Sequence record: OL960581
Source: Escherichia phage vB_EcoM_SA20RB
Direction: 5' to 3' (one strand)
DNA: 64,000 nucleotides
This document shows, piece by piece, positions 12 to 57,005 of the stretch. The stretch's first letter is position 1. Each line of letters starts with the position of its first letter. The translations under genes were made by a program, and so were the position numbers. The notes beneath the pieces are model-generated. The model made no database searches and was not told the origin of the DNA. It was given only the letters and a program-made list of their open reading frames with translations.

Positions 12-2189
12 TTAGGCCGCAAGGGCCTTCATAGTTTTAGCGATTTGGGAAACTTCATCATCACTTAAAGAGTTGCGATAACCGATGAAGTCGGAAACAA
101 TACGGAATTTCTTGGTAAACTCAGCAACCATTTTATCACTGTTTTTTGAAGCATTACGTGATAATTCATCAAAAAGATTAGTTACTGTCCAGATGTCATG
201 ACCGATGGTATCTTTTCCACCGTTGAAATATATACCCTGCAATGAACTAACCATATTACCAAGGCGAGTATATTCTTCGGAAACTTCATCTACACTGAAG
301 TACTTCATCATAAAATCTAGTTCAGGATACTTAATAATTTTATCAATATATCGTTTAGCTGAACTTGAATAACCTACATACTTATCATAATCTACAGCAT
401 CAAAAGCATCTACATATAAATCACGCAGAGTTTCAAAAATACATTGGCACTGACCAAGTTCTTTTACCTTTTTCTGCAAAAGCGGACGAATAACATAAAA
501 TTCATTAATACCAATAAGATTAGCCATACGAGTCAAAATACTCGTAGATGGATGACAAAGCGATGTAGTACCATCCATAGAGAAAATATCAGAACGATGC
601 ATATATGCTACATAACCAGTAATTTCATCTGCTTCTGATGTGAGTGTAAATAGTTCCTCTTTTTCCCAGCGTCCGTCTTTAATTTCAAACTTAAATGCAG
701 TAGCAGCTTTAGGACGAGGAGCTTTACTTTTAACTGCCTTCGGAATATAACTTTTAACTAAAGCTTCAATTTCTGACAAATAATGAATGTTAACTTCATC
801 ACTTTCAAACATTGCCATAATATCAGGAAGCAAATCAATCTGCGATTCTACTTCTGGATTAATAAACAGAAGCCGCTCATTGTGATGAATATTTAAGGTG
901 TTATTAAATTCACTATCATCTAACGCGCGTGCTAATCCACGGACAATATTAACACGATTTTTAGTATTATCAATAACAATATTAATTTTTGTCGTATTAA
1001 TACCAAACAGACGATAGCTTGACGCAACGGCTGAAGTTTCATGGCTTTGCTTAATGCGTTTCAGTCGAGGGTCAAGATTTACTTCATACACAACCCCTGC
1101 ATTGCATAACTTACTGTCAGGTTCAAACATGCTCTGCATCTTTTTATATGACAGATTTTTAGTCGTGAATTTGACTGAATTGCTAATCATATAATCTCGA
1201 GCAGAATATCCCATCTTCATCAATTCACGGTATGTATGACGAGGAGATGTAGATTCTTTAAATCGTTTTACATCTTCATTAAATGCCTGCTCACTGAGCT
1301 CTTTAACACGCTCAATAATATTTTTACGAGTACGATCATCTAATGAAAGAGCTTCGCGTGATGGAGCAATATCAAGTGAACCCATTGGAAACTTAATGTA
1401 ATTCACTTCATTGCGGATGCTTAACCAGTTACGATCTCTAATAACACCTTCGATAGGATAAACAATGCCGCCATAGATAGCATACAATCCACCGCGATCT
1501 GGCCAGTATCTTTCTGGATTTACACCGTAATAGTCATCAAAATCCGGAAAATAATCAATTTCGCGGTCAAGACCATTAATGATAGCCAAATCTTTGAATG
1601 GTCGCATGATATAAGAAACTTCATAAGCAAAGTTTCTAAAGTCTTTTTCTTCAACTGGAACTACGATTTCAATACCAGTTTTATCATCTGGACCCATTTC
1701 TTTTACGAATGTAGGTTTAATCTGCGGACCATCACCATCCATGTAAGCTACATAACCACGAATTTCACCTTTATGATATGAAGTAATACTAAATGTATCA
1801 GTATAACTAAACGGAGATTTAGAACCTAAACCAAATCCACCAATGAAATCGTTAGATTCAGCCTTAGATGAACTAAAGTATGAATTATACAACCCAGGAG
1901 AATTATCATCACCCTGAATATCAAAATCGCTCATACCTGGACCAAAATCTCGGCAAACAAATCGCGGATCTAATCGTCCTGGAACTTGAATGATAAATTT
2001 TTCAGGATTTCCATTAAGAGCATGGGCATCAATCATGTTGGTAATCAATTCACGAACCACTGCGCGAATCTTGTTTGTATACAAATCAGATGACAGAATT
2101 TTAAATACTTTAGGATTTGCTGCGATGCTAAATGCCTTTGATTTAGAACCATTACCAAGAATTGTTTCTTTTTCAGTGGTGATAATCAT
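12..2189 (-). CDS. rIIA: rIIA protein (725 aa)
   Basis: 725-aa ORF, ATG start at 2187-2189; size and position at left genome end match T-even rIIA. Confidence 0.85.
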
Positions 2190-2199
2190 AATTTCCTCA

Positions 2200-2403
2200 T
2201 TAATTCATATTGCGTTTAATAACTTCAGCAACTTCTAGTAGTTCATCTTTAGTTGCAGTATCGGATTGAATTTTATCTCTAATATCCTTAAAGCGGTTTT
2301 TAAACTCTTCGGCTTCTCCCATATCGAAAAAGCGTTGAATGATTCTATATTCTCGATGAACTGCTTTATCAAAAAGTTCTAAATTTACTCTATATGATTT
2401 CAT
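2200..2403 (-). CDS. small hypothetical protein (67 aa), T4 rIIA.1 position
   Basis: ATG start; immediately downstream of rIIA-upstream early promoter. Confidence 0.55.
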
Positions 2404-2428
2404 TTCAATATCCTCATTTGCCCAATTA

Positions 2429-2458
2429 ATTATACCACATCCTTGTGGTAAAGTAAAC
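2429..2458 (-). promoter_or_regulatory. T4-type early promoter (GTTTAC -35, TGnTATAAT -10)
   Basis: minus strand reads GTTTAC-17/18nt-TGGTATAAT; plus-strand attata 2429-2434, gtaaac 2454-2459. Confidence 0.6.
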
Positions 2459-4275
2459 TATTGGCTCATCCATTCTTTACGAAGGTCAGCATTATCTCCC
2501 ATGAGCATTTCAAAAAGCTCCTTCCAATTCTCAGGAAGTTTAACAACATCATATACTGGATTTTGAATCATCTCACGATACTCAGATTTTTCCAAAGAGC
2601 CAAGTCCCTTAATATAACGGATGCTATGTTTAGGTAGAGCATCTTTAGCACTCTCATATTCAGCGACTGTATAAAACCATTCTTGTTTTTTACCGACCTG
2701 AGCGATGATTACAGGAGTTTTGACAAAGCGAATTCTTCCTTGTTCAAACAGTTCTGGCCAATTACTGAAAAATCCGAGCAGAGAAGGATAAATGCTTCCT
2801 AGACCATCATGGTCAGCATCGGTCATAATAGCAATATTATGATAATTCAAGTTTTCAGCTTTTTCACCAAGAACTAATCCAGTGATTGCGCAAATATCAA
2901 ACAGTTCTTTATTTTTAAGCATATCAGCATATGACATACCCCAACTGTTGAGAACTTTACCACGCAATGGATAACCGCCATGAAGTTCTTTATCACGAAC
3001 ATCAATAAGATATCCGATAGCAGAATCACCCTCAGTCAAGAAAAGAGTCGTGTCAGCATCTTTACCACAAAGATTCGCTTTAATATGTTTATGAACCTTA
3101 GCTTTAGAAGCCTTTTTAGCTGCTTTAGTTTCTGCTGCTTTTTCTGCCGCCAATTTACGAGCCAAGGCAGCTTCAATAATTGGCATCAAAATAGCTTCAT
3201 TATTTAGAATAGCGCGTGAAATCTTTTTAGCATCAAGTTGAATATGACTACGGATTTCACCAAATGGAGAAGTCAAACGCTCTTTAGTTTGAGAATCAAA
3301 TCGCATGTTTTTCATATCACGAACAAACATAACGATAGTCAAACATTCTTTAACACGTGCTTTAGTTACATCAATTTTGAACTTACGTTTGATTTGTGGA
3401 ATAAGGTCTTCACAAATATCATCCATAACACAGTCAATGTGATGGCCACCATTCTTAGTGTGAATGTTATTCACATAAGTTAATTGGCGAAATCCATCCG
3501 GTGAACGACCAACCGCAATAGAACAATTTTCTTGTTCTTGAACAATAGCATGTTCATCATACTGTCGTGCATATTTCTTAAAATTACCCTGAACCTTTTT
3601 ACCATTAAAGGTAAATTGAATATCAGGATAAACAACAGCAAGTGTCTGGAGACGATCTAGTGTAATGTCAAGATAAACTTGGGACAGCTCATTAGTTTCA
3701 AATGACATAAAATCTGGAATGAAAGTAACACGAGTTCCTTTCCATTTTCCAGGAATAGTTTCCCAGGATTTATTTTCCATGCCATTTGAACAACGAACTA
3801 CAATATTATTTTGACCATCACCAGTTTCACCAACAAACATCACAGAAAAAATGTTAGTTAAACTAGAACCAACACCATTCATACCACCGGTGACACGTTC
3901 TTTATCATCACCGAAGTTACCACCTGCTTTTGGAATAGTCCAAGCAGCAACTGGACCAGGAATTTCTTCACCGGTAGGTGTTTTAACCATCGCTTGTGGA
4001 ATACCGCGACCGTTATCTTCAACTGTTACCTGATTATTTTTAATGGTAACATTAATTTTATTCGCGAATTTAAACTTAGTACGAATACCTTCATCTACTG
4101 AGTTATCGATAATTTCATCAATAAGCTTAACAAGACCAGGTACATACTGAACACTTTCCCATTTACCAAACAGAAAGCGCTCATGCATTTCATTAGCAGA
4201 AGAACCAATGTACATGCCGCTACGCTTTTTGATATGTTCAATATCGCTCAGAATTTTAATTTCATTCTTAATCAT
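2458..4275 (-). CDS. 39: DNA topoisomerase II large (ATPase) subunit, uninterrupted gp39+gp60 equivalent (605 aa)
   Basis: GyrB-like N-terminus; C-terminus matches T4 gp60 tail (..KLPENWKELFEMLMGDNADLRKEWMSQ); ATG at 4273-4275 with GAGGA SD (track start is GTG one codon upstream). Confidence 0.85.
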   Translation of the reverse strand: MIKNEIKILSDIEHIKKRSGMYIGSSANEMHERFLFGKWESVQYVPGLVKLIDEIIDNSVDEGIRTKFKFANKINVTIKNNQVTVEDNGRGIPQAMVKTPTGEEIPGPVAAWTIPKAGGNFGDDKERVTGGMNGVGSSLTNIFSVMFVGETGDGQNNIVVRCSNGMENKSWETIPGKWKGTRVTFIPDFMSFETNELSQVYLDITLDRLQTLAVVYPDIQFTFNGKKVQGNFKKYARQYDEHAIVQEQENCSIAVGRSPDGFRQLTYVNNIHTKNGGHHIDCVMDDICEDLIPQIKRKFKIDVTKARVKECLTIVMFVRDMKNMRFDSQTKERLTSPFGEIRSHIQLDAKKISRAILNNEAILMPIIEAALARKLAAEKAAETKAAKKASKAKVHKHIKANLCGKDADTTLFLTEGDSAIGYLIDVRDKELHGGYPLRGKVLNSWGMSYADMLKNKELFDICAITGLVLGEKAENLNYHNIAIMTDADHDGLGSIYPSLLGFFSNWPELFEQGRIRFVKTPVIIAQVGKKQEWFYTVAEYESAKDALPKHSIRYIKGLGSLEKSEYREMIQNPVYDVVKLPENWKELFEMLMGDNADLRKEWMSQ

Positions 4276-14762: not shown

Positions 14763-14999
14763 TTAACCACCTATATTTGTAGGTGTAAACATTGCAGCAT
14801 TCTTAGTTTTCCAATCAGCTGCATCAGAAACTACAGTAGAGTATGCTGCCTTTTCAGAAGGAAAGGTCTGATAATGAGAATCTGCGATACGATGCTCGTT
14901 AGAATAAATTTCAAACGGAACAGAAACTTCCATACCTTTAACTTCTTTGCCTTCACCTGCTGGATGAGTAAAGGTCTTGATGTTAACGAAACCACCCAT
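14763..14999 (-). CDS. soc: small outer capsid protein Soc-like (78 aa)
   Basis: motifs GYVNIKTF.. and HYQTFPSEKAAYSTV shared with T4 Soc (recalled); late promoter upstream; terminator downstream. Confidence 0.65.
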   Translation of the reverse strand: MGGFVNIKTFTHPAGEGKEVKGMEVSVPFEIYSNEHRIADSHYQTFPSEKAAYSTVVSDAADWKTKNAAMFTPTNIGG

Positions 15000-15030: not shown

Positions 15031-15038
15031 TATTTATA
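15031..15038 (-). promoter_or_regulatory. T4 late promoter box (TATAAATA)
   Basis: plus tatttata 15031-15038, 32 nt upstream of soc ATG. Confidence 0.55.
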
Positions 15039-15212: not shown

Positions 15213-15403
15213 TTTGAATGCTCTATAATTAATTTTAAAGCTTCTTCACTGACAAAAATTTCGTCATGACCTTCTGTAACTTCAACCATATGAAGCTGAT
15301 TAGTTAAGAGCTCACATACGAGCTCCTTGTTATAATCTTTAAATAGCTGGTCAATACGCTTCTTGCGGGCTTTCTTAAGCTGGCGCTTATTTAAACGAGC
15401 CAT
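15209..15403 (-). CDS. hypothetical protein (64 aa)
   Basis: ATG start; abuts gp56 stop. Confidence 0.45.
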   Translation of the reverse strand: MARLNKRQLKKARKKRIDQLFKDYNKELVCELLTNQLHMVEVTEGHDEIFVSEEALKLIIEHSK

Positions 15404-15921
15404 TAATAACCTCGGTCTTGACGTGCGAAATTTTCTGCATTTTTCAAATAATAAAGTTTAAAGATTTCTTCAGCAGTAAGACCAAGACCTTGGAACATAT
15501 TCAGAACGAAATGAAGAATATCAATCATTTCAAATTTAATTTCCAACTGGTCTTGCGGTGACAAATCAGTAATCAGAGTTTCACGGCGTTCACCATGTTG
15601 CGACTTCCAAGGTTTCCATACAGCAGATGCGTCTTTTTCACCATTACTCATACCACCAAGAGAAGTCAGAAGTTCACGGAATTCATCATCAATATAGTCT
15701 TTCTGATTACGTAGCCAATCAACAACTTCACCGGCAGTAGCCAAATCATCAGGATGACGGTTATATTCAGGTTTATCTTTAGCTAAACGAACCTGCAGAG
15801 ATTTCTGCATATCAAGCATAACCTGCAGCGGGTCTTTTTCATCACCGAGAATATCCCAGTATTCATTTTGAGCTTTATCAGCGCCTTCGATCAGTTGTGA
15901 ACATTCGTTAAAGTATGCCAT
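15403..15921 (-). CDS. 56: dCTPase/dUTPase gp56 (MazG-like, about 172 aa)
   Basis: start moved to ATG 15919-15921 (MAYFNECSQL..) with AAGGA SD; matches T4 gp56 length about 171; track ORF extends 31 codons upstream. Confidence 0.8.
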   Translation of the reverse strand: MAYFNECSQLIEGADKAQNEYWDILGDEKDPLQVMLDMQKSLQVRLAKDKPEYNRHPDDLATAGEVVDWLRNQKDYIDDEFRELLTSLGGMSNGEKDASAVWKPWKSQHGERRETLITDLSPQDQLEIKFEMIDILHFVLNMFQGLGLTAEEIFKLYYLKNAENFARQDRGY

Positions 15922-15992
15922 TATTTTTCCTTTCAATTCATGGGTTAGTAGATTAATTATACAATAAATATATAAAGCAATAAGGAGGACAT

Positions 15993-16193
15993 ATGGTACA
16001 AAAATTAATGGCACTTGTTAATGCCATCAAAGGTAATAAAAAACGTATAGCTTTTACTATTTCTGCTATGGTAGGAATTTTACTCTGGAACTTTATTTTA
16101 TCACCAATTGCAATTGCGCATGGTGTTAATATTCCAGTAGTTACTCTTGATACATTCGTAGATTTAGCATTTGCTCTAGTTGGGCTAATTTAA
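15993..16193 (+). CDS. small hydrophobic (membrane) protein, plus strand (66 aa)
   Basis: ATG 15993 preceded by strong SD taAGGAGGacat; two hydrophobic segments; convergent with gene 61 (4-nt 3' overlap). Confidence 0.5.
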   Translation: MVQKLMALVNAIKGNKKRIAFTISAMVGILLWNFILSPIAIAHGVNIPVVTLDTFVDLAFALVGLI

Positions 16194-17218
16194 ATCTTGG
16201 CATATTTAGATAGCCGCATTTTAGCCATTAACCCCTGGGCAATATTATTTTTCATATATTCCATAATTTGTTCAGGGGTTGCACCTTCCTTTCTAATCAT
16301 ATCATTGACATCTTTTGATTTCCAGGGAGATTTATCCCAAAACATAACCCTTTCTCCTGCATCAACTAATTTAGTCATTCGTTTGATAGTGTCAGGGTGA
16401 CGAGGTTCATTATCTAAAACCCACACTCGTCTATCTTTAAATGGAACAACTTCTAGGTCTAATTGACCGCCAGTAATGGCTATACCATTTTCAATAAAAA
16501 GTGAATCTATAGGTCCTTCTAGAACATATACATCACCATCTTTGACTCGTTCAACTCCATAGATTTTTGTTGCCTCAGGATAAGCTTTGATGGTGATATA
16601 TTTTTGAGGAGCATCTTTCTTTAATGCACGTCCTTGAAAAGACTCAGCTTTTCCATTAGCATTATAAATTGGAATAACAAGACGAGGCTCAGGTATTTCC
16701 TTTTTATATGTTCCTGGCGCTATACTGTTAACTAATTTAGGCCATTCAGTTGTAAACCAAAGATATTTCCATTTATCCTTTGGAATACAACGAGCTTTTA
16801 CATATTTTATAATTGGATGGTCTTCCGCCAGTTTATCTAATCTAATACATGACGGAAGAGATTTAATTATTTTCTTCTCAGGTTGTTTAGGAAGTTCTTT
16901 AGGTTTTTCTACTGGACGACTTTTACCTTTTTCTTTTCTTATTTCAAAGATATACTCACGATATAAATCAGGTTCAAACTCCTTTAAATATATTCCGATT
17001 GGTGCATGATAGTTGCAGTTATAACAATGAATATTTCCTTCATTATTATCGCCATAATACCATCCACGGGCTTTATTTTGATCGGTTTTTGAATCTCCAC
17101 AAACAGGGCATCTAAACCGTAATTTAAAAGTTGAACTATTATTTACTTGTGCGAATTTAGGCAAATGAGCTAATGCACGGTATGCAAACTCATTATCAAT
17201 CCAAGGTATTGATGACAT
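16190..17218 (-). CDS. 61: DNA primase gp61 (342 aa)
   Basis: zinc-ribbon CPVCGDSK..CYNCNYH, 342 aa as T4 gp61, ATG start. Confidence 0.85.
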   Translation of the reverse strand: MSSIPWIDNEFAYRALAHLPKFAQVNNSSTFKLRFRCPVCGDSKTDQNKARGWYYGDNNEGNIHCYNCNYHAPIGIYLKEFEPDLYREYIFEIRKEKGKSRPVEKPKELPKQPEKKIIKSLPSCIRLDKLAEDHPIIKYVKARCIPKDKWKYLWFTTEWPKLVNSIAPGTYKKEIPEPRLVIPIYNANGKAESFQGRALKKDAPQKYITIKAYPEATKIYGVERVKDGDVYVLEGPIDSLFIENGIAITGGQLDLEVVPFKDRRVWVLDNEPRHPDTIKRMTKLVDAGERVMFWDKSPWKSKDVNDMIRKEGATPEQIMEYMKNNIAQGLMAKMRLSKYAKI

Positions 17219-17220
17219 TT

Positions 17221-17385
17221 TTACTCTTCTTTTTCTTTAGATTCCTCTTTTTTCTTTTTAGGAATCTGTTCAGGACCTTTATTTACTACAGCACCTGACG
17301 TTGTTCCAGTAGAGATATTTTCAGGATTACCACCTGAATCTCCAGCTACCATATCTTCTTTAATAAATTCTTTAAACGTTTTCAT
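17221..17385 (-). CDS. small lysine-rich protein (54 aa), not in ORF track
   Basis: hand-translated MKTFKEFIKEDMVAGDSGGNPENISTGTTSGAVVNKGPEQIPKKKKEESKEKEE; stop 2 nt before gene 61 ATG. Confidence 0.4.
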   Translation of the reverse strand: MKTFKEFIKEDMVAGDSGGNPENISTGTTSGAVVNKGPEQIPKKKKEESKEKEE

Positions 17386-17397
17386 ATTAGCCTCTAA

Positions 17398-17691
17398 TTA
17401 TTCACCTACCACTTCAGCGATGATATTTTTATTATTAAAGTTTTTATCGCAATACAGAACATAATTATACTGCATTACACCACCAGACTTAAGCTGTTTT
17501 TGCACTTCGGCTTTCATTTCAGGACGATCACGCTCAACGATATTCATAATATCCGCTTCAATTTGAGTTTCAACCTCAGTCTGATCTGCAGTCATAGACC
17601 ATTCACACAAATCTTTGTCATAACCCGCCATAGCAGGCTGAGCAGTACAAGAAGCCAAAGCAAAAATTGCAGCAAAAACAAATTTTTTCAT
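17398..17691 (-). CDS. sp: periplasmic protein, Spackle (Sp)-like (97 aa)
   Basis: cleavable signal peptide (..PAMA); 97 aa; located between primase and helicase genes as T4 sp. Confidence 0.5.
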   Translation of the reverse strand: MKKFVFAAIFALASCTAQPAMAGYDKDLCEWSMTADQTEVETQIEADIMNIVERDRPEMKAEVQKQLKSGGVMQYNYVLYCDKNFNNKNIIAEVVGE

Positions 17692-17794
17692 GATAATCTC
17701 CTCAGTAGTTTATGTTTACAGTATCTCAATTTTCAACAAAAGTAAACACTAGTAGAAGTAAACAGACAAATTGCAATAATTGGTGATTTCAGTT

Positions 17795-17977
17795 TCATTC
17801 TTCTCCTCCTTCGTGTTGATGAACATATTCTTTTTCAAGTCTAGAGCACAAGTTTTCATATTCAACTAATAAAAATGAATCAAGTGCGTTATTTCTATGC
17901 TGACACCGTTCTTGTAAAGAATCCATCTCTGAACGTTGTTCTTGTGTTAATAATTGATAACCTGATACTTTAGACAT
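17795..17977 (-). CDS. hypothetical acidic protein (60 aa)
   Basis: ATG with GGAGAA SD; downstream of early promoter 18007-18036. Confidence 0.45.
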   Translation of the reverse strand: MSKVSGYQLLTQEQRSEMDSLQERCQHRNNALDSFLLVEYENLCSRLEKEYVHQHEGGEE

Positions 17978-20323: not shown

Positions 20324-21479
20324 TTAACTGATCTAGGTCAGTTTCTAAATCAGCTGCTGATTTACTTTTACTTTCTGGAGATTTAAATTTTTCAACCTTT
20401 GAGTTAATCAATTCATCAACTTCAGCTTCAACAATTTCATTACTATCAATAGCACCTAACTGATAAGCATGTTTAATAGCATCTCGGAATGGTTGATGCT
20501 TAAATAAAGGACCCCAGAATGTAGTGCAGTTGGTATCTTTTGCACGCCAAGATTTTTCTTCGCGAATCATCTCGCCGGTTTCTTCGTCAAGAAATTCACG
20601 AGCATACCAGCCATTTTTAGGTTTTACCACAAATCCTAATTCAAGAGCCATATCTAACAATCCAGAATAAGGATCGATACCACCGTCAAATTTAACATCA
20701 ATAAAGAATTTACTTTTTTCTTTAACGGTACGAGATTTTTCTACATTTAGAACAAATTGATACCCCTGAAGATCAGAACCATCTTTAATCTGGCGCTTAC
20801 CGATAATGAATACAGTATCAGCCGAATACATTACGCCTGTACCACCTGTCATCACGGTTTTACTAAACATTTCAATTGTTTCAATTGTATGGTTAACCGC
20901 AACGCACGGAATGTTTTTAATACTAAAATAAGGAGTAACAATACGGAATAATGACTTCAGTGATTTAGCACGAGTCATATCTGCCACAGATTTTTCATTC
21001 AAGGCATCTTCCGTTTCTTTCTTAGAAGCCATATTACCGATTGAGTCGATGAATACAATAACCTTTTCACCACGCTCAATAGCTTCAAGCTGGTTCACCA
21101 TATCAATTTTCAGTTGTTCAACTGACTGAATTGGTGTATGAATTACTCGTTCCGGGTCAACTCCCATGGATCGCAAATAAGCAGGAGTAATACCAAATTC
21201 GCTATCATAGAATAGACAAACCGCGTCAGGATATTTGTTCAAATACGCCGCAACCATAGTCAAAGACATATTTGATTTAAAGTGTTTAGAAGGACCTGCA
21301 AAAATGGTTAAACCAGACTGCATACCACCATCAATCGCACCAGAAATAGCAATATTAAGCATTGGGATTTTTGTACGGATTACATCCTTTTCATTAAAGA
21401 ATTTAGATGTAGTCAGTTCAGCAGTCATTTTAGAAGTGGAAGCTTTAATCAAACGGGATTTTAAATCTGCAATAGACAT
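20298..21479 (-). CDS. uvsX: UvsX RecA-like recombinase (393 aa)
   Basis: ATG start; N-terminus SIADLKSRLIKASTSK..; RecA fold motifs; size near T4 UvsX (391). Confidence 0.85.
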   Translation of the reverse strand: MSIADLKSRLIKASTSKMTAELTTSKFFNEKDVIRTKIPMLNIAISGAIDGGMQSGLTIFAGPSKHFKSNMSLTMVAAYLNKYPDAVCLFYDSEFGITPAYLRSMGVDPERVIHTPIQSVEQLKIDMVNQLEAIERGEKVIVFIDSIGNMASKKETEDALNEKSVADMTRAKSLKSLFRIVTPYFSIKNIPCVAVNHTIETIEMFSKTVMTGGTGVMYSADTVFIIGKRQIKDGSDLQGYQFVLNVEKSRTVKEKSKFFIDVKFDGGIDPYSGLLDMALELGFVVKPKNGWYAREFLDEETGEMIREEKSWRAKDTNCTTFWGPLFKHQPFRDAIKHAYQLGAIDSNEIVEAEVDELINSKVEKFKSPESKSKSAADLETDLDQLSDMEEFNE

Positions 21480-56328: not shown

Positions 56329-56715
56329 TTATTCGAGGGAAAGAAGATATTTACTTTGATAAAACATTCCAGTAATATCATCTATCGTGCTTTGAATGGC
56401 TGGAGGCATTTCTTTATAAATGCTGTTAGATTGGTCTAGTATGCGATCAATCATTTTAATTGTGTCGGTAGGAAGTTTACTAGCATCTGGAATTGAAGGT
56501 GTGTATTTTCTACCAGAATACCCCAAATATTGCTCACCAAATTTATCAATCAAATCTGGTAACTCAGAGAAAATAAAATCGTATGCTTTATGTCTAGCAT
56601 AACTTTTAGTTTCAAAATGCGCAGAATGAAAATAAGCTTGTGCAGCCATTAATAAACCTAAGTATTCATCTGCCTTTGAAGGTTTTCCACTTTGTGAAAA
56701 GTCGCTGAATTTCAT
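56329..56715 (-). CDS. hypothetical protein (128 aa)
   Basis: ATG start overlapping rI stop. Confidence 0.5.
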
Positions 56716-57005
56716 TCAGTCTCCAATTTAATGTTCATAATTCTAGCGTATGATTGTGCCATCTCCGCGCCTCGCTCTATACATTCAAAATCGGAAGAGC
56801 ACGGGTCATTTTTATAGGTCGTTCGCATAAAACTATAGAACTGTTCAGATGATTCTACGCTTTTATTTTCAAAAAGCATATAAACATGTCTAATGCCAGA
56901 TTCCATAAATTTATCAAAATGAGGATCGACATTTGCTTCAATCGGTGGAGATAAAGCAAACGCTAATCCTAGCATGGCAAATAGTGCCGTTGCTTTTAAG
57001 GCCAT
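56712..57005 (-). CDS. rI: lysis-inhibition regulator RI (antiholin, 97 aa)
   Basis: 97 aa, N-terminal signal-anchor; AGGAGG SD; position upstream of tk region. Confidence 0.6.
   Translation of the reverse strand: MALKATALFAMLGLAFALSPPIEANVDPHFDKFMESGIRHVYMLFENKSVESSEQFYSFMRTTYKNDPCSSDFECIERGAEMAQSYARIMNIKLETE

Follow-up and report, generated by a model that had tools for sequence, protein, structure and literature searches.

We analyzed a 64,000-nucleotide stretch of DNA from Escherichia phage vB_EcoM_SA20RB (sequence record OL960581), hereafter called the window, and in it a small plus-strand open reading frame (ORF) of 66 amino acids which lies between gene 56 and gene 61. The window is of Tequatrovirus type, and this part of it is 97% identical to teqdroes and 96-97% identical to RB51, RB68, AR1 and wV7. 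A first-pass annotation, made from the sequence alone, had proposed a lone plus-strand gene for a small hydrophobic protein at this place. That it is a genuine gene is supported by our comparisons: the frame is under purifying selection, it is open in all lineages examined (six genera) and its ribosome-binding site is kept. The ORF begins with ATG, and the near-consensus Shine-Dalgarno sequence with a 4-nt spacer, as well as the end of the ORF 4 nt inside the stop of gene 61, were found as first described. The features of the locus are as follows.

15993..16193, plus strand: coding sequence of the 66-amino-acid protein, stop included (listing of ATG-start ORFs and a full-length match to PHROG 2024)
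15982..15988, plus strand: Shine-Dalgarno sequence AAGGAGG, followed by the spacer ACAT (4 nt) to the ATG, read from the sequence
16190..16193: palindrome TTAA, the 4-nt stop overlap, with the TAA of the small ORF (plus strand) at 16191-16193 and the TAA of gene 61 (minus strand) at 16192-16190
15403..15921, minus strand: gene 56 (dCTPase/dUTPase), the left neighbor (PHROG 173, NTP pyrophosphohydrolase, E 1.5e-46; so annotated in relatives)
16190..17218, minus strand: gene 61 (DNA primase), the convergent right neighbor (PHROG 47, E 7.8e-107; so annotated in relatives)

The gap between genes 56 and 61, which had been put at about 270 bp, measures 268 bp, and 71 bp separate gene 56 from the small ORF. 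All other genes of this neighborhood lie on the minus strand in the nearest annotated relatives, in agreement with the earlier description of the surroundings as transcribed leftward only. The size of the ORF is not significant alone, because 34 plus-strand ATG ORFs of at least 60 amino acids are found in the window. It is raised above chance by the strong ribosome-binding site (AAGGAGG has just three copies in the window, both strands, 128 kb), the substitution pattern and the retention across genera. We also checked for other hidden plus-strand genes at the late-motif sites 4910 and 61565 and at the ORFs with Shine-Dalgarno-like sequences at 14874 and 21304, and none was credible; the ORF at 14874 is antisense to the soc ORF and the one at 21304 is antisense to a long minus-strand gene.

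Evidence for protein coding

The ten Tequatrovirus copies examined differ by 24 changes at 23 variable sites, 17 of them synonymous and 7 nonsynonymous, and the resulting omega of about 0.13 (binomial P = 1.8e-6) is the lowest among the six frames. The nonsynonymous changes are conservative (V/I, A/T, N/S, V/A), and the pairwise ratio of nonsynonymous to synonymous substitution rates (dN/dS) is 0.07-0.11 within Tequatrovirus. Between genera the synonymous sites are saturated, with proportions of synonymous differences (pS) of 0.64-0.87 and of nonsynonymous differences (pN) of 0.17-0.37, and still no stop interrupts the frame in any of the ten lineages tested. Two variants are set apart by deletions of exactly three codons. 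The strong Shine-Dalgarno sequence and the ATG are retained in every lineage examined. Judged from these comparisons, purifying selection acts on the protein encoded by the plus-strand frame, which is convergent with gene 61 in all examined carriers, and we consider it very probable that this is a real gene. The first-pass annotation had held that lack of conservation in other genomes would speak against the ORF; the outcome of the comparison clearly favors a gene.

The minus-strand frame which continues gene 61 is also open across the whole 66-codon span in the window, as it is in half of the ten lineages. Its wobble positions are shared with the plus frame, and stops in it are possible only at Tyr, His and Gln codons of the small protein, which has no Tyr, one His and one Gln. 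The openness of the minus frame is thus explained by the amino-acid composition of the plus frame, nearly devoid of these three residues, and we treat it as a probable shadow of the real frame. A read-through extension of the C-terminus of gene product 61 (gp61), or a separate minus-strand gene, was rejected because of stops in the other five lineages and a higher omega.

Presence in T4 and family range

The gene is not new, since hundreds of records list it as a hypothetical protein. Its product matches PHROG 2024 (unknown function) at E 1.5e-31, with residues 2-66 aligned to profile positions 1-65 of 65. Family names in relatives are RB32ORF030w, RB69ORF029w, RB51ORF032 ("similar to RB69ORF029w") and ar1_033, and the pVOG is VOG1982. 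The identical protein has been deposited as RB68_032, and it is also present in 17 Tequatrovirus UniRef entries and on 154 contigs.

The first-pass annotation had stated that T4 carries the dam methyltransferase gene in the 56-61 interval, and this is correct (T4 dam lies at 16846..17625); it was also right that no methyltransferase ORF is present here, as tblastn with T4 Dam gave zero matches anywhere in the 64-kb window. The comparison of the interval with T4 and T2 which it had advised showed that the small ORF is found in both phages, between dam and gene 61. As T4 and T2 carry both, the small ORF is not a substitute for dam. The T4 copy is 97% and the T2 copy 95.5% identical to that of the window (tblastn). 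In T4 it occupies 17738..17935, inside a 309-bp gap between the dam start at 17625 and the gene 61 stop at 17935, and no feature is annotated in this gap (17625-17935) in AF158101.6 or NC_000866.4. The T2 member is not annotated in the listed T2 records LC348380.1 and NC_054931.1, and no NCBI accession was found for the exact T4 protein, while a T4 assembly annotated with Pharokka does call the ORF. The small ORF is not mentioned in the literature we searched on T4 ribosome profiling, transcription-start mapping, re-annotation and CRISPRi-ART, and transcript data for it were not found there either. What is added here is its carriage by T4 and T2, unannotated in the T4 reference records, its apparent universality in Tequatrovirus, a conserved variant of the late promoter and a conserved face which is predicted to be periplasmic.

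With tblastn the small ORF was found in 692 phage records, 502 of them at at least 90% identity. Primase at at least 80% identity is likewise present in 502 records (501 at at least 95%), and because the two counts are equal the small ORF is apparently present in every Tequatrovirus. Members of the family have 60-69 amino acids. Outside Tequatrovirus, homologues of 61-69 amino acids which lie on the plus strand and adjoin primase were found in the following genera and on several metagenomic T4-like contigs.

Mosigvirus: phages G53 and RB69
Gaprivervirus: DK-13, TH40 and TH57
Karamvirus: CkP1
Jiaodavirus: PKO111
Kanagawavirus: KLB31

The plus-strand position convergent with the 3' end of gene 61 is shared by the window, teqdroes, RB51, T4, G53, RB69, CkP1, PKO111 and KLB31. 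The ORF is retained although its left neighbor differs (gene 56, dam, hypothetical genes or one that is mazG-like). Going by annotated coordinates, T4, RB69, CkP1 and KLB31 share the 4-nt stop overlap, which is missing in lineages L019 and L023, in PKO111 and in DK-13. In the last of these (L006, a Gaprivervirus) a homing endonuclease gene at 2172-2921 (minus strand) lies between the small ORF and primase gene 61; the overlap is lost and the ORF retained. As far as these comparisons reach, the family is limited to one clade of T4-like phages of enterobacteria, and each classified genus with the gene belongs to the subfamily Tevenvirinae. Nothing was found at this site in Krischvirus, Slopekvirus, Serratia phage 4S and Acinetobacter Lazarusvirus, where same-strand genes stand directly after gene 61. 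An exhaustive profile search of 1.84 billion proteins returned eight cluster representatives, all of them in the family, and two more word-indexed searches did not extend it.

A tandem paralogue of 67 amino acids was observed at L023:2805-3008 (plus strand), and also in L024, directly upstream of the small ORF and overlapping it by 8 nt. The L023 tandem paralogue retains W-N..P and LP.VE. The two-gene cassette of L023 is preceded by CATAAATA, and from gene 61 the pair is separated by a GC-rich hairpin of 8 bp whose loop is GAAA. Going by protein names (ESCO47_00130 and ESCO47_00131), phage vB_EcoM_ESCO47 also has a tandem pair.

Late-promoter-like motif and probable timing of expression

Upstream of the ribosome-binding site there is a motif similar to the late promoter of T4:

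15963..15970, plus strand: T4 late-promoter-like motif AATAAATA, the variant of TATAAATA with A at -13, ending 22 nt before the ATG

Its core, ATAAATA, has only 10 copies in the window (both strands, 128 kb). In eight of the ten lineages NATAAATA is situated 13-22 nt before the ATG, in flanks which are otherwise mutually unalignable. The forms found are these:

Window type: AATAAATA
T4: GATAAATA (17709-17716 of the T4 record)
Mosigvirus: AATAAATA
Gaprivervirus: CATAAATA
L021: AATAAATA
L023, before the two-gene cassette: CATAAATA
PKO111: AATAAATA
KLB31: CATAAATA

For any one lineage, the probability that such a motif falls in the right position by chance is about 0.1-2%. The motif of the window sits in the spacer of the gene 56 middle promoter, in sequence which is not homologous to that of the T4 motif (the T4 spacer differs), and this argues for selection to retain a late motif. 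In T4 the late promoter TATAAATA occupies -13 to -6; 32 of 50 sites are perfect and 9 of 50 have A at -13, the commonest accepted variant (PMC2988020). The T at -13 is poorly conserved in other T4-like phages (PMC1524935). Early and middle transcripts of T4 are all of one polarity, while late transcripts can be of either (Geiduschek and Kassavetis, PMC2988020). Since genes 56 and 61 define the early and middle strand, a plus-strand gene at this place can only be late, and on these sequence grounds late expression of the gene is likely. RNA polymerase with gp55 would start near 15976, the predicted site, and give a leader of about 17 nt which carries AAGGAGG. As a positive control for the motif count, a perfect TATAAATA was found at 15031-15038 (minus strand), 31 nt upstream of an ORF at 14763..14999 (minus strand) which is taken as soc-like because of its position and the annotation of soc in relatives. 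This site, expected for that late gene, is one of the ten copies of ATAAATA.

Two signals of the opposite strand were also found at the locus:

15956..15982, minus strand: MotA-type middle promoter of gene 56, with the MotA box TATTGCTTTA at 15982..15973, an 11-nt spacer and the -10 element TATAAT at 15961..15956
16000..16030, minus strand: terminator-like hairpin (16030..16005) followed by a run of five T, within codons 5-13 of the small ORF (terminator scan)

The MotA box consensus is (a/t)(a/t)(a/t)TGCTTtA, located 12 +/- 1 bp from the -10 element (Hinton, PMC2988021). The pattern TGCTT-N13-16-TATAAT has five matches in the window where 0.82 are expected, a number reached by none of 100 shuffles, and four of the five are on the minus strand. 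T4 has a homologous promoter in front of its gene 56. The 71 bp which separate gene 56 from the small ORF in the window thus contain two overlapping, divergent predicted promoters placed back to back and belonging to different temporal classes.

The hairpin, about 160 nt past the gene 61 stop, has a fold energy of -12.4 kcal/mol (z = -3.6), and none of 200 shuffles folds as well. It is weaker in T4 and missing in Mosigvirus; as it is confined to the Tequatrovirus type, it was rejected as the cause of the family-wide conservation. Since the stops overlap and leave no room for a terminator at TTAA, transcripts of gene 61 should run antisense over the small ORF up to the hairpin at 16030..16005. 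Such early and middle read-through would possibly help to silence the gene before the late phase. A late plus-strand transcript, in turn, would meet no terminator for more than 3 kb. Neither feature is present in every lineage, with a hairpin between the genes in L023 and gaps in L019 and PKO111.

The predicted protein

The part of the gene which carries the predicted membrane span and the conserved core is given below.

16047..16118, plus strand: single predicted transmembrane helix, codons 19-42 (hydrophobicity sum, AlphaFold2, and TMHMM on the RB69 homologue)
16086..16151, plus strand: family-wide core W-N-[FY]..P.A..HG..P...[DE], codons 32-53 (14-sequence alignment)

Two hydrophobic segments had been proposed for the protein. 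Both are present, but by a simple hydrophobicity sum only the first, approximately residues 19-42, is of the grade of a membrane span. On the hydrophobicity scale used, the best 19-residue sum is about 0.4, at residues 19-37 (-2.4 to +3.3 across the family), and that of the last 24 residues is +5 to +14, so these C-terminal residues are not expected to form a span alone. AlphaFold2, run on the 14-sequence alignment, gave a mean predicted local distance difference test (pLDDT) score of 78, with a helix at 2-42, a loop at 43-51 and a helix at 52-65. TMHMM predicts one helix, at 21-41, for RB69ORF029w (Nolan 2006 supplement). The hydrophobicity sum, the AlphaFold2 model and TMHMM on the RB69 homologue thus agree on one transmembrane helix.

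The N-terminal flank of this helix has five lysine or arginine residues and the C-terminal flank none, and in the family the numbers are 4-6 against 0-1, with 1-2 acidic residues in the C-terminal flank. By the positive-inside rule these charges would place the N-terminus in the cytoplasm and the tail in the periplasm. An inner-membrane protein with one span, N-terminus in and C-terminus out, is accordingly a topology which the models favor, though with some reserve. The C-terminal 29 residues contain no lysine or arginine and two aspartates, and end in the hydrophobic ...AFALVGLI. These predictions make a periplasmic or interfacial tail the likelier reading of the second hydrophobic segment, rather than a second span; the tail of about 24 residues at the periplasmic face would be acidic and partly amphipathic.

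W32 and P38 are invariant in the 14 sequences, which go down to 18% identity, and N33, G44 and P48 are conserved in at least 90% of them, with an acidic residue following in most. The 66-amino-acid protein itself has the shorter core W-N-[FY]..P...G...P. The conserved core coincides with the predicted outer half of the helix and the juxtamembrane tail, whereas the N-terminus is not conserved across the family. Conservation of an asparagine within the helix together with a periplasmic motif suggests contacts, either helix-helix or protein-protein, on the outer face of the inner membrane. The C-terminal VNIPVVTLD... resembles the TolR/ExbD transmembrane motif, and this likeness was rejected because the spacing of Pro and Asp differs, the orientation in the membrane would be reversed and there is no Pfam match to ExbD.

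Possible function

The explanation which in our analysis fits best overall, although we put it forward only tentatively, is that of a late inner-membrane accessory factor acting on the cell envelope, in lysis timing or exclusion. The product would insert in the inner membrane, the basic N-terminus on the cytoplasmic side and the tail in the periplasm. We conjecture that the motif W-N-[FY]..P.A..HG..P...[DE], at the outer leaflet and next to the membrane, could bind another envelope protein, and that this contact might tune an event at the envelope late in infection; the likeliest candidates are lysis timing or lysis inhibition, and envelope integrity. A role specifically in lysis or in the envelope is doubtful when taken by itself. 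Somewhat unlikely too is that the gene is a working part of the T-even late envelope program, as a further regulator of holin-dependent lysis or of lysis inhibition, or as a late exclusion factor.

Among the known systems compared, the T4 antiholin RI is also a small T-even protein with one N-terminal hydrophobic anchor and a part which acts in the periplasm. RI was found in 921 records, 502 of which are Tequatrovirus, and its phyletic range, which also takes in Mosig-, Gapriver-, Jiaoda- and Karamvirus, is approximately that of the small protein. On the other hand, no sequence similarity between the two was found (the exhaustive profile search gave family members only), rI lies elsewhere in the window on the minus strand (57005..56712), and the globular periplasmic domain of RI has about 70 residues where the tail of the small protein has about 24. 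Holins resemble it as small membrane proteins, here with one predicted transmembrane helix and probably late expression, and UniProt gives the label "Holin" to a single member of the family, A0A482MZV5 of phage OE5505, and to that record only. In contrast to holins, the C-terminus is hydrophobic without a highly charged tail and the charged end is the N-terminus, there is no holin match in Pfam or NCBIfam and PHROGs gives only 2024, of unknown function, no endolysin or spanin gene is nearby, and T4 already has the holin T. The assignment as a holin was rejected since the charged C-terminal tail, the holin-family match and the linkage to lysis genes are all missing. Type I toxins (hok/sok, tisB/istR) are likewise short single-span hydrophobic proteins, and convergent read-through from gene 61 to the hairpin would cover the coding sequence. 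However, sequence similarity is missing, no gene for a dedicated antisense RNA is evident, and in some lineages (L019, L023, PKO111) the convergent genes do not overlap.

Several points weigh against the interpretation as a late envelope factor. The functional step is drawn from architecture, timing and analogy only. No homologue of known function was found across sequence, profile and structure searches: Pfam, NCBIfam and PADLOC gave no match at E up to 10, a sequence profile search of the PDB gave only a chance match, a transmembrane helix of the nicotinic receptor (E 0.14), and Foldseek against BFVD and the PDB gave family members or noise only. Control of lysis in T4 is already accounted for by T, RI, RIII and the spanins, and no missing part is required. 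The co-occurrence with RI is weak and too unspecific as evidence of function, being expected of many genes restricted to the clade. The orientation of the C-terminal segment is uncertain and the hydrophobicity sums are to be taken as approximate. As regards timing, the canonical T at -13 is present in none of the ten lineages, the late motif is missing in two of them (L019/L020 and CkP1), and the terminator scan found no plus-strand terminator for more than 3 kb after the ORF. The promoter scan of Nolan et al. lists no late promoter before RB69ORF029w.

The same evidence for the gene, its timing and its topology would serve a late inner-membrane protein with a protective task, which blocks late entry of secondary-phage DNA or killing, or neutralizes a membrane-associated host effector of abortive infection or defense; we regard this as possible, if rather doubtful. 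Genes of exclusion and counter-defense are situated nearby (spackle at 17398..17691; dmd and 61.2/AdfA in relatives), but the known ones of T4 in this neighborhood are early and on the minus strand, whereas the small ORF is on the late strand. The family is present only in phages of enterobacteria, and the protein evolves faster than its replication neighbors (its identity between Tequatrovirus and Mosigvirus is 55%, that of primase about 74%), as is typical of proteins at the interface with the host. Yet presence in essentially every Tequatrovirus would be unusual for counter-defense against a sporadic host system, and neither PADLOC nor any other family search gave a match. A membrane-anchored helper of morphogenesis, for example in prohead or tail-fibre assembly at the inner membrane, would also fit the late timing and the membrane location; most T4 late genes serve virion assembly, and assembly of the T4 prohead begins on the inner membrane. 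It is nevertheless quite improbable, because the conserved part is predicted to face the periplasm or outer leaflet while the cytoplasmic N-terminus, which would be at the side of assembly, is not conserved between genera, and because Krischvirus, Slopekvirus and further T4-like phages in which T4-type genes are annotated lack the gene beside primase.

The remaining alternatives place the function in the nucleic acid. Late transcription from NATAAATA could run antisense into gene 61 and, in the dam-less layout, occupy the gene 56/oriA-type middle promoter, and so shut off early replication functions with the peptide being secondary. This is improbable, if slightly less so than the morphogenesis helper. 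It would make sense of the late motif inside the spacer of the gene 56 MotA-type promoter, the missing plus-strand terminator, the recurrence of the convergent overlap with gene 61 in several genera and the annotation in T4 of oriA next door, primed by the gene 56 transcript. But T4 itself has dam between the late motif and the gene 56 promoter, and the homing endonuclease of DK-13 and the GC-rich hairpin of L023 stand between the ORF and gene 61, so neither the occlusion of the promoter nor the antisense to gene 61 is conserved; the constraint, moreover, is at the protein level, with specific residues retained at 18-30% identity. Such a role is compatible with a function of the protein, and the two can coexist. 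That there is no gene at all, and that the 3' untranslated region or terminator of gene 61 together with the promoters of gene 56 or dam form a conserved non-coding region which is open by chance, is very unlikely in light of the sequence comparisons. The interval does carry the minus-strand hairpin at 16030..16005 and the MotA-type promoter, the minus frame continuing gene 61 is open in half of the lineages, and ORFs of this size are common by chance. However, the hairpin is lineage-specific, the promoters are not within the ORF, and the second open frame is a consequence of composition and has stops in five of ten lineages. Of the six frames it is the plus frame that shows the lowest omega; this frame stays open despite saturated synonymous sites and retains a strong ribosome-binding site and ATG everywhere.

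If the interpretation as a late envelope factor is true, the protein has been missed by decades of T4 genetics, possibly because it is off the reference list and because its last 48 residues would form one long hydrophobic tryptic peptide. For lysis control, superinfection exclusion and late transcription the reference phage is T4, and AF158101.6 and NC_000866.4 are the gene lists where a genome-wide study of T4 would normally begin. A gene which is present in apparently all of the approximately 500 Tequatrovirus genomes but is off these lists would be overlooked by such studies. Should the product prove to be a late membrane protein, one more gene would be added to the T4 map, together with a defined candidate for late envelope phenotypes which are unexplained. 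It is otherwise an ordinary small gene, publicly carried as a hypothetical protein.

The dam boundary and neighboring genes

Conservation relative to T4 (L003) changes abruptly within the interval. Positions 15982-16700 of the window, with the small ORF and part of gene 61, are 96.8% identical to T4, while 15403-15961, with gene 56, are only 77.1% identical, and the 20 bases 15962-15981 between them cannot be aligned. On one side of the junction stands the MotA box of the gene 56 promoter, on the other the ribosome-binding site of the small ORF. From this alignment the difference in dam is an insertion or deletion to the left of the small ORF, and the sharp mosaic break at 15962-15981 coincides exactly with its junction. 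The homing endonuclease segF, which adjoins gene 56 in T4, is missing from the window. In this dam-less window GATC is depleted, with 74 sites observed and about 199 expected from base composition.

On IMG/VR contig 2974787500_000001 (L012), which is Tequatrovirus-like, an extra gene for 186 amino acids lies between dam and the small ORF (L012:1341-1901, minus strand). It has weak, sub-threshold Pfam matches to the restriction endonucleases DpnII (E 0.0045) and BanI, and it may be a GATC restriction partner of the phage Dam. On the other side of primase, spackle (17398..17691; Pfam T4_Spackle, E 9.4e-45) stands directly after gene 61.1. Two genes which RB51 and teqdroes have between 61.1 and sp, gene 61.2 and RB32ORF033c, are thus missing from the window; T4, too, has 61.2 at this position. 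A related contig has, at the 61.2/RB32ORF033c position, a gene with a weak Pfam match to AdfA.

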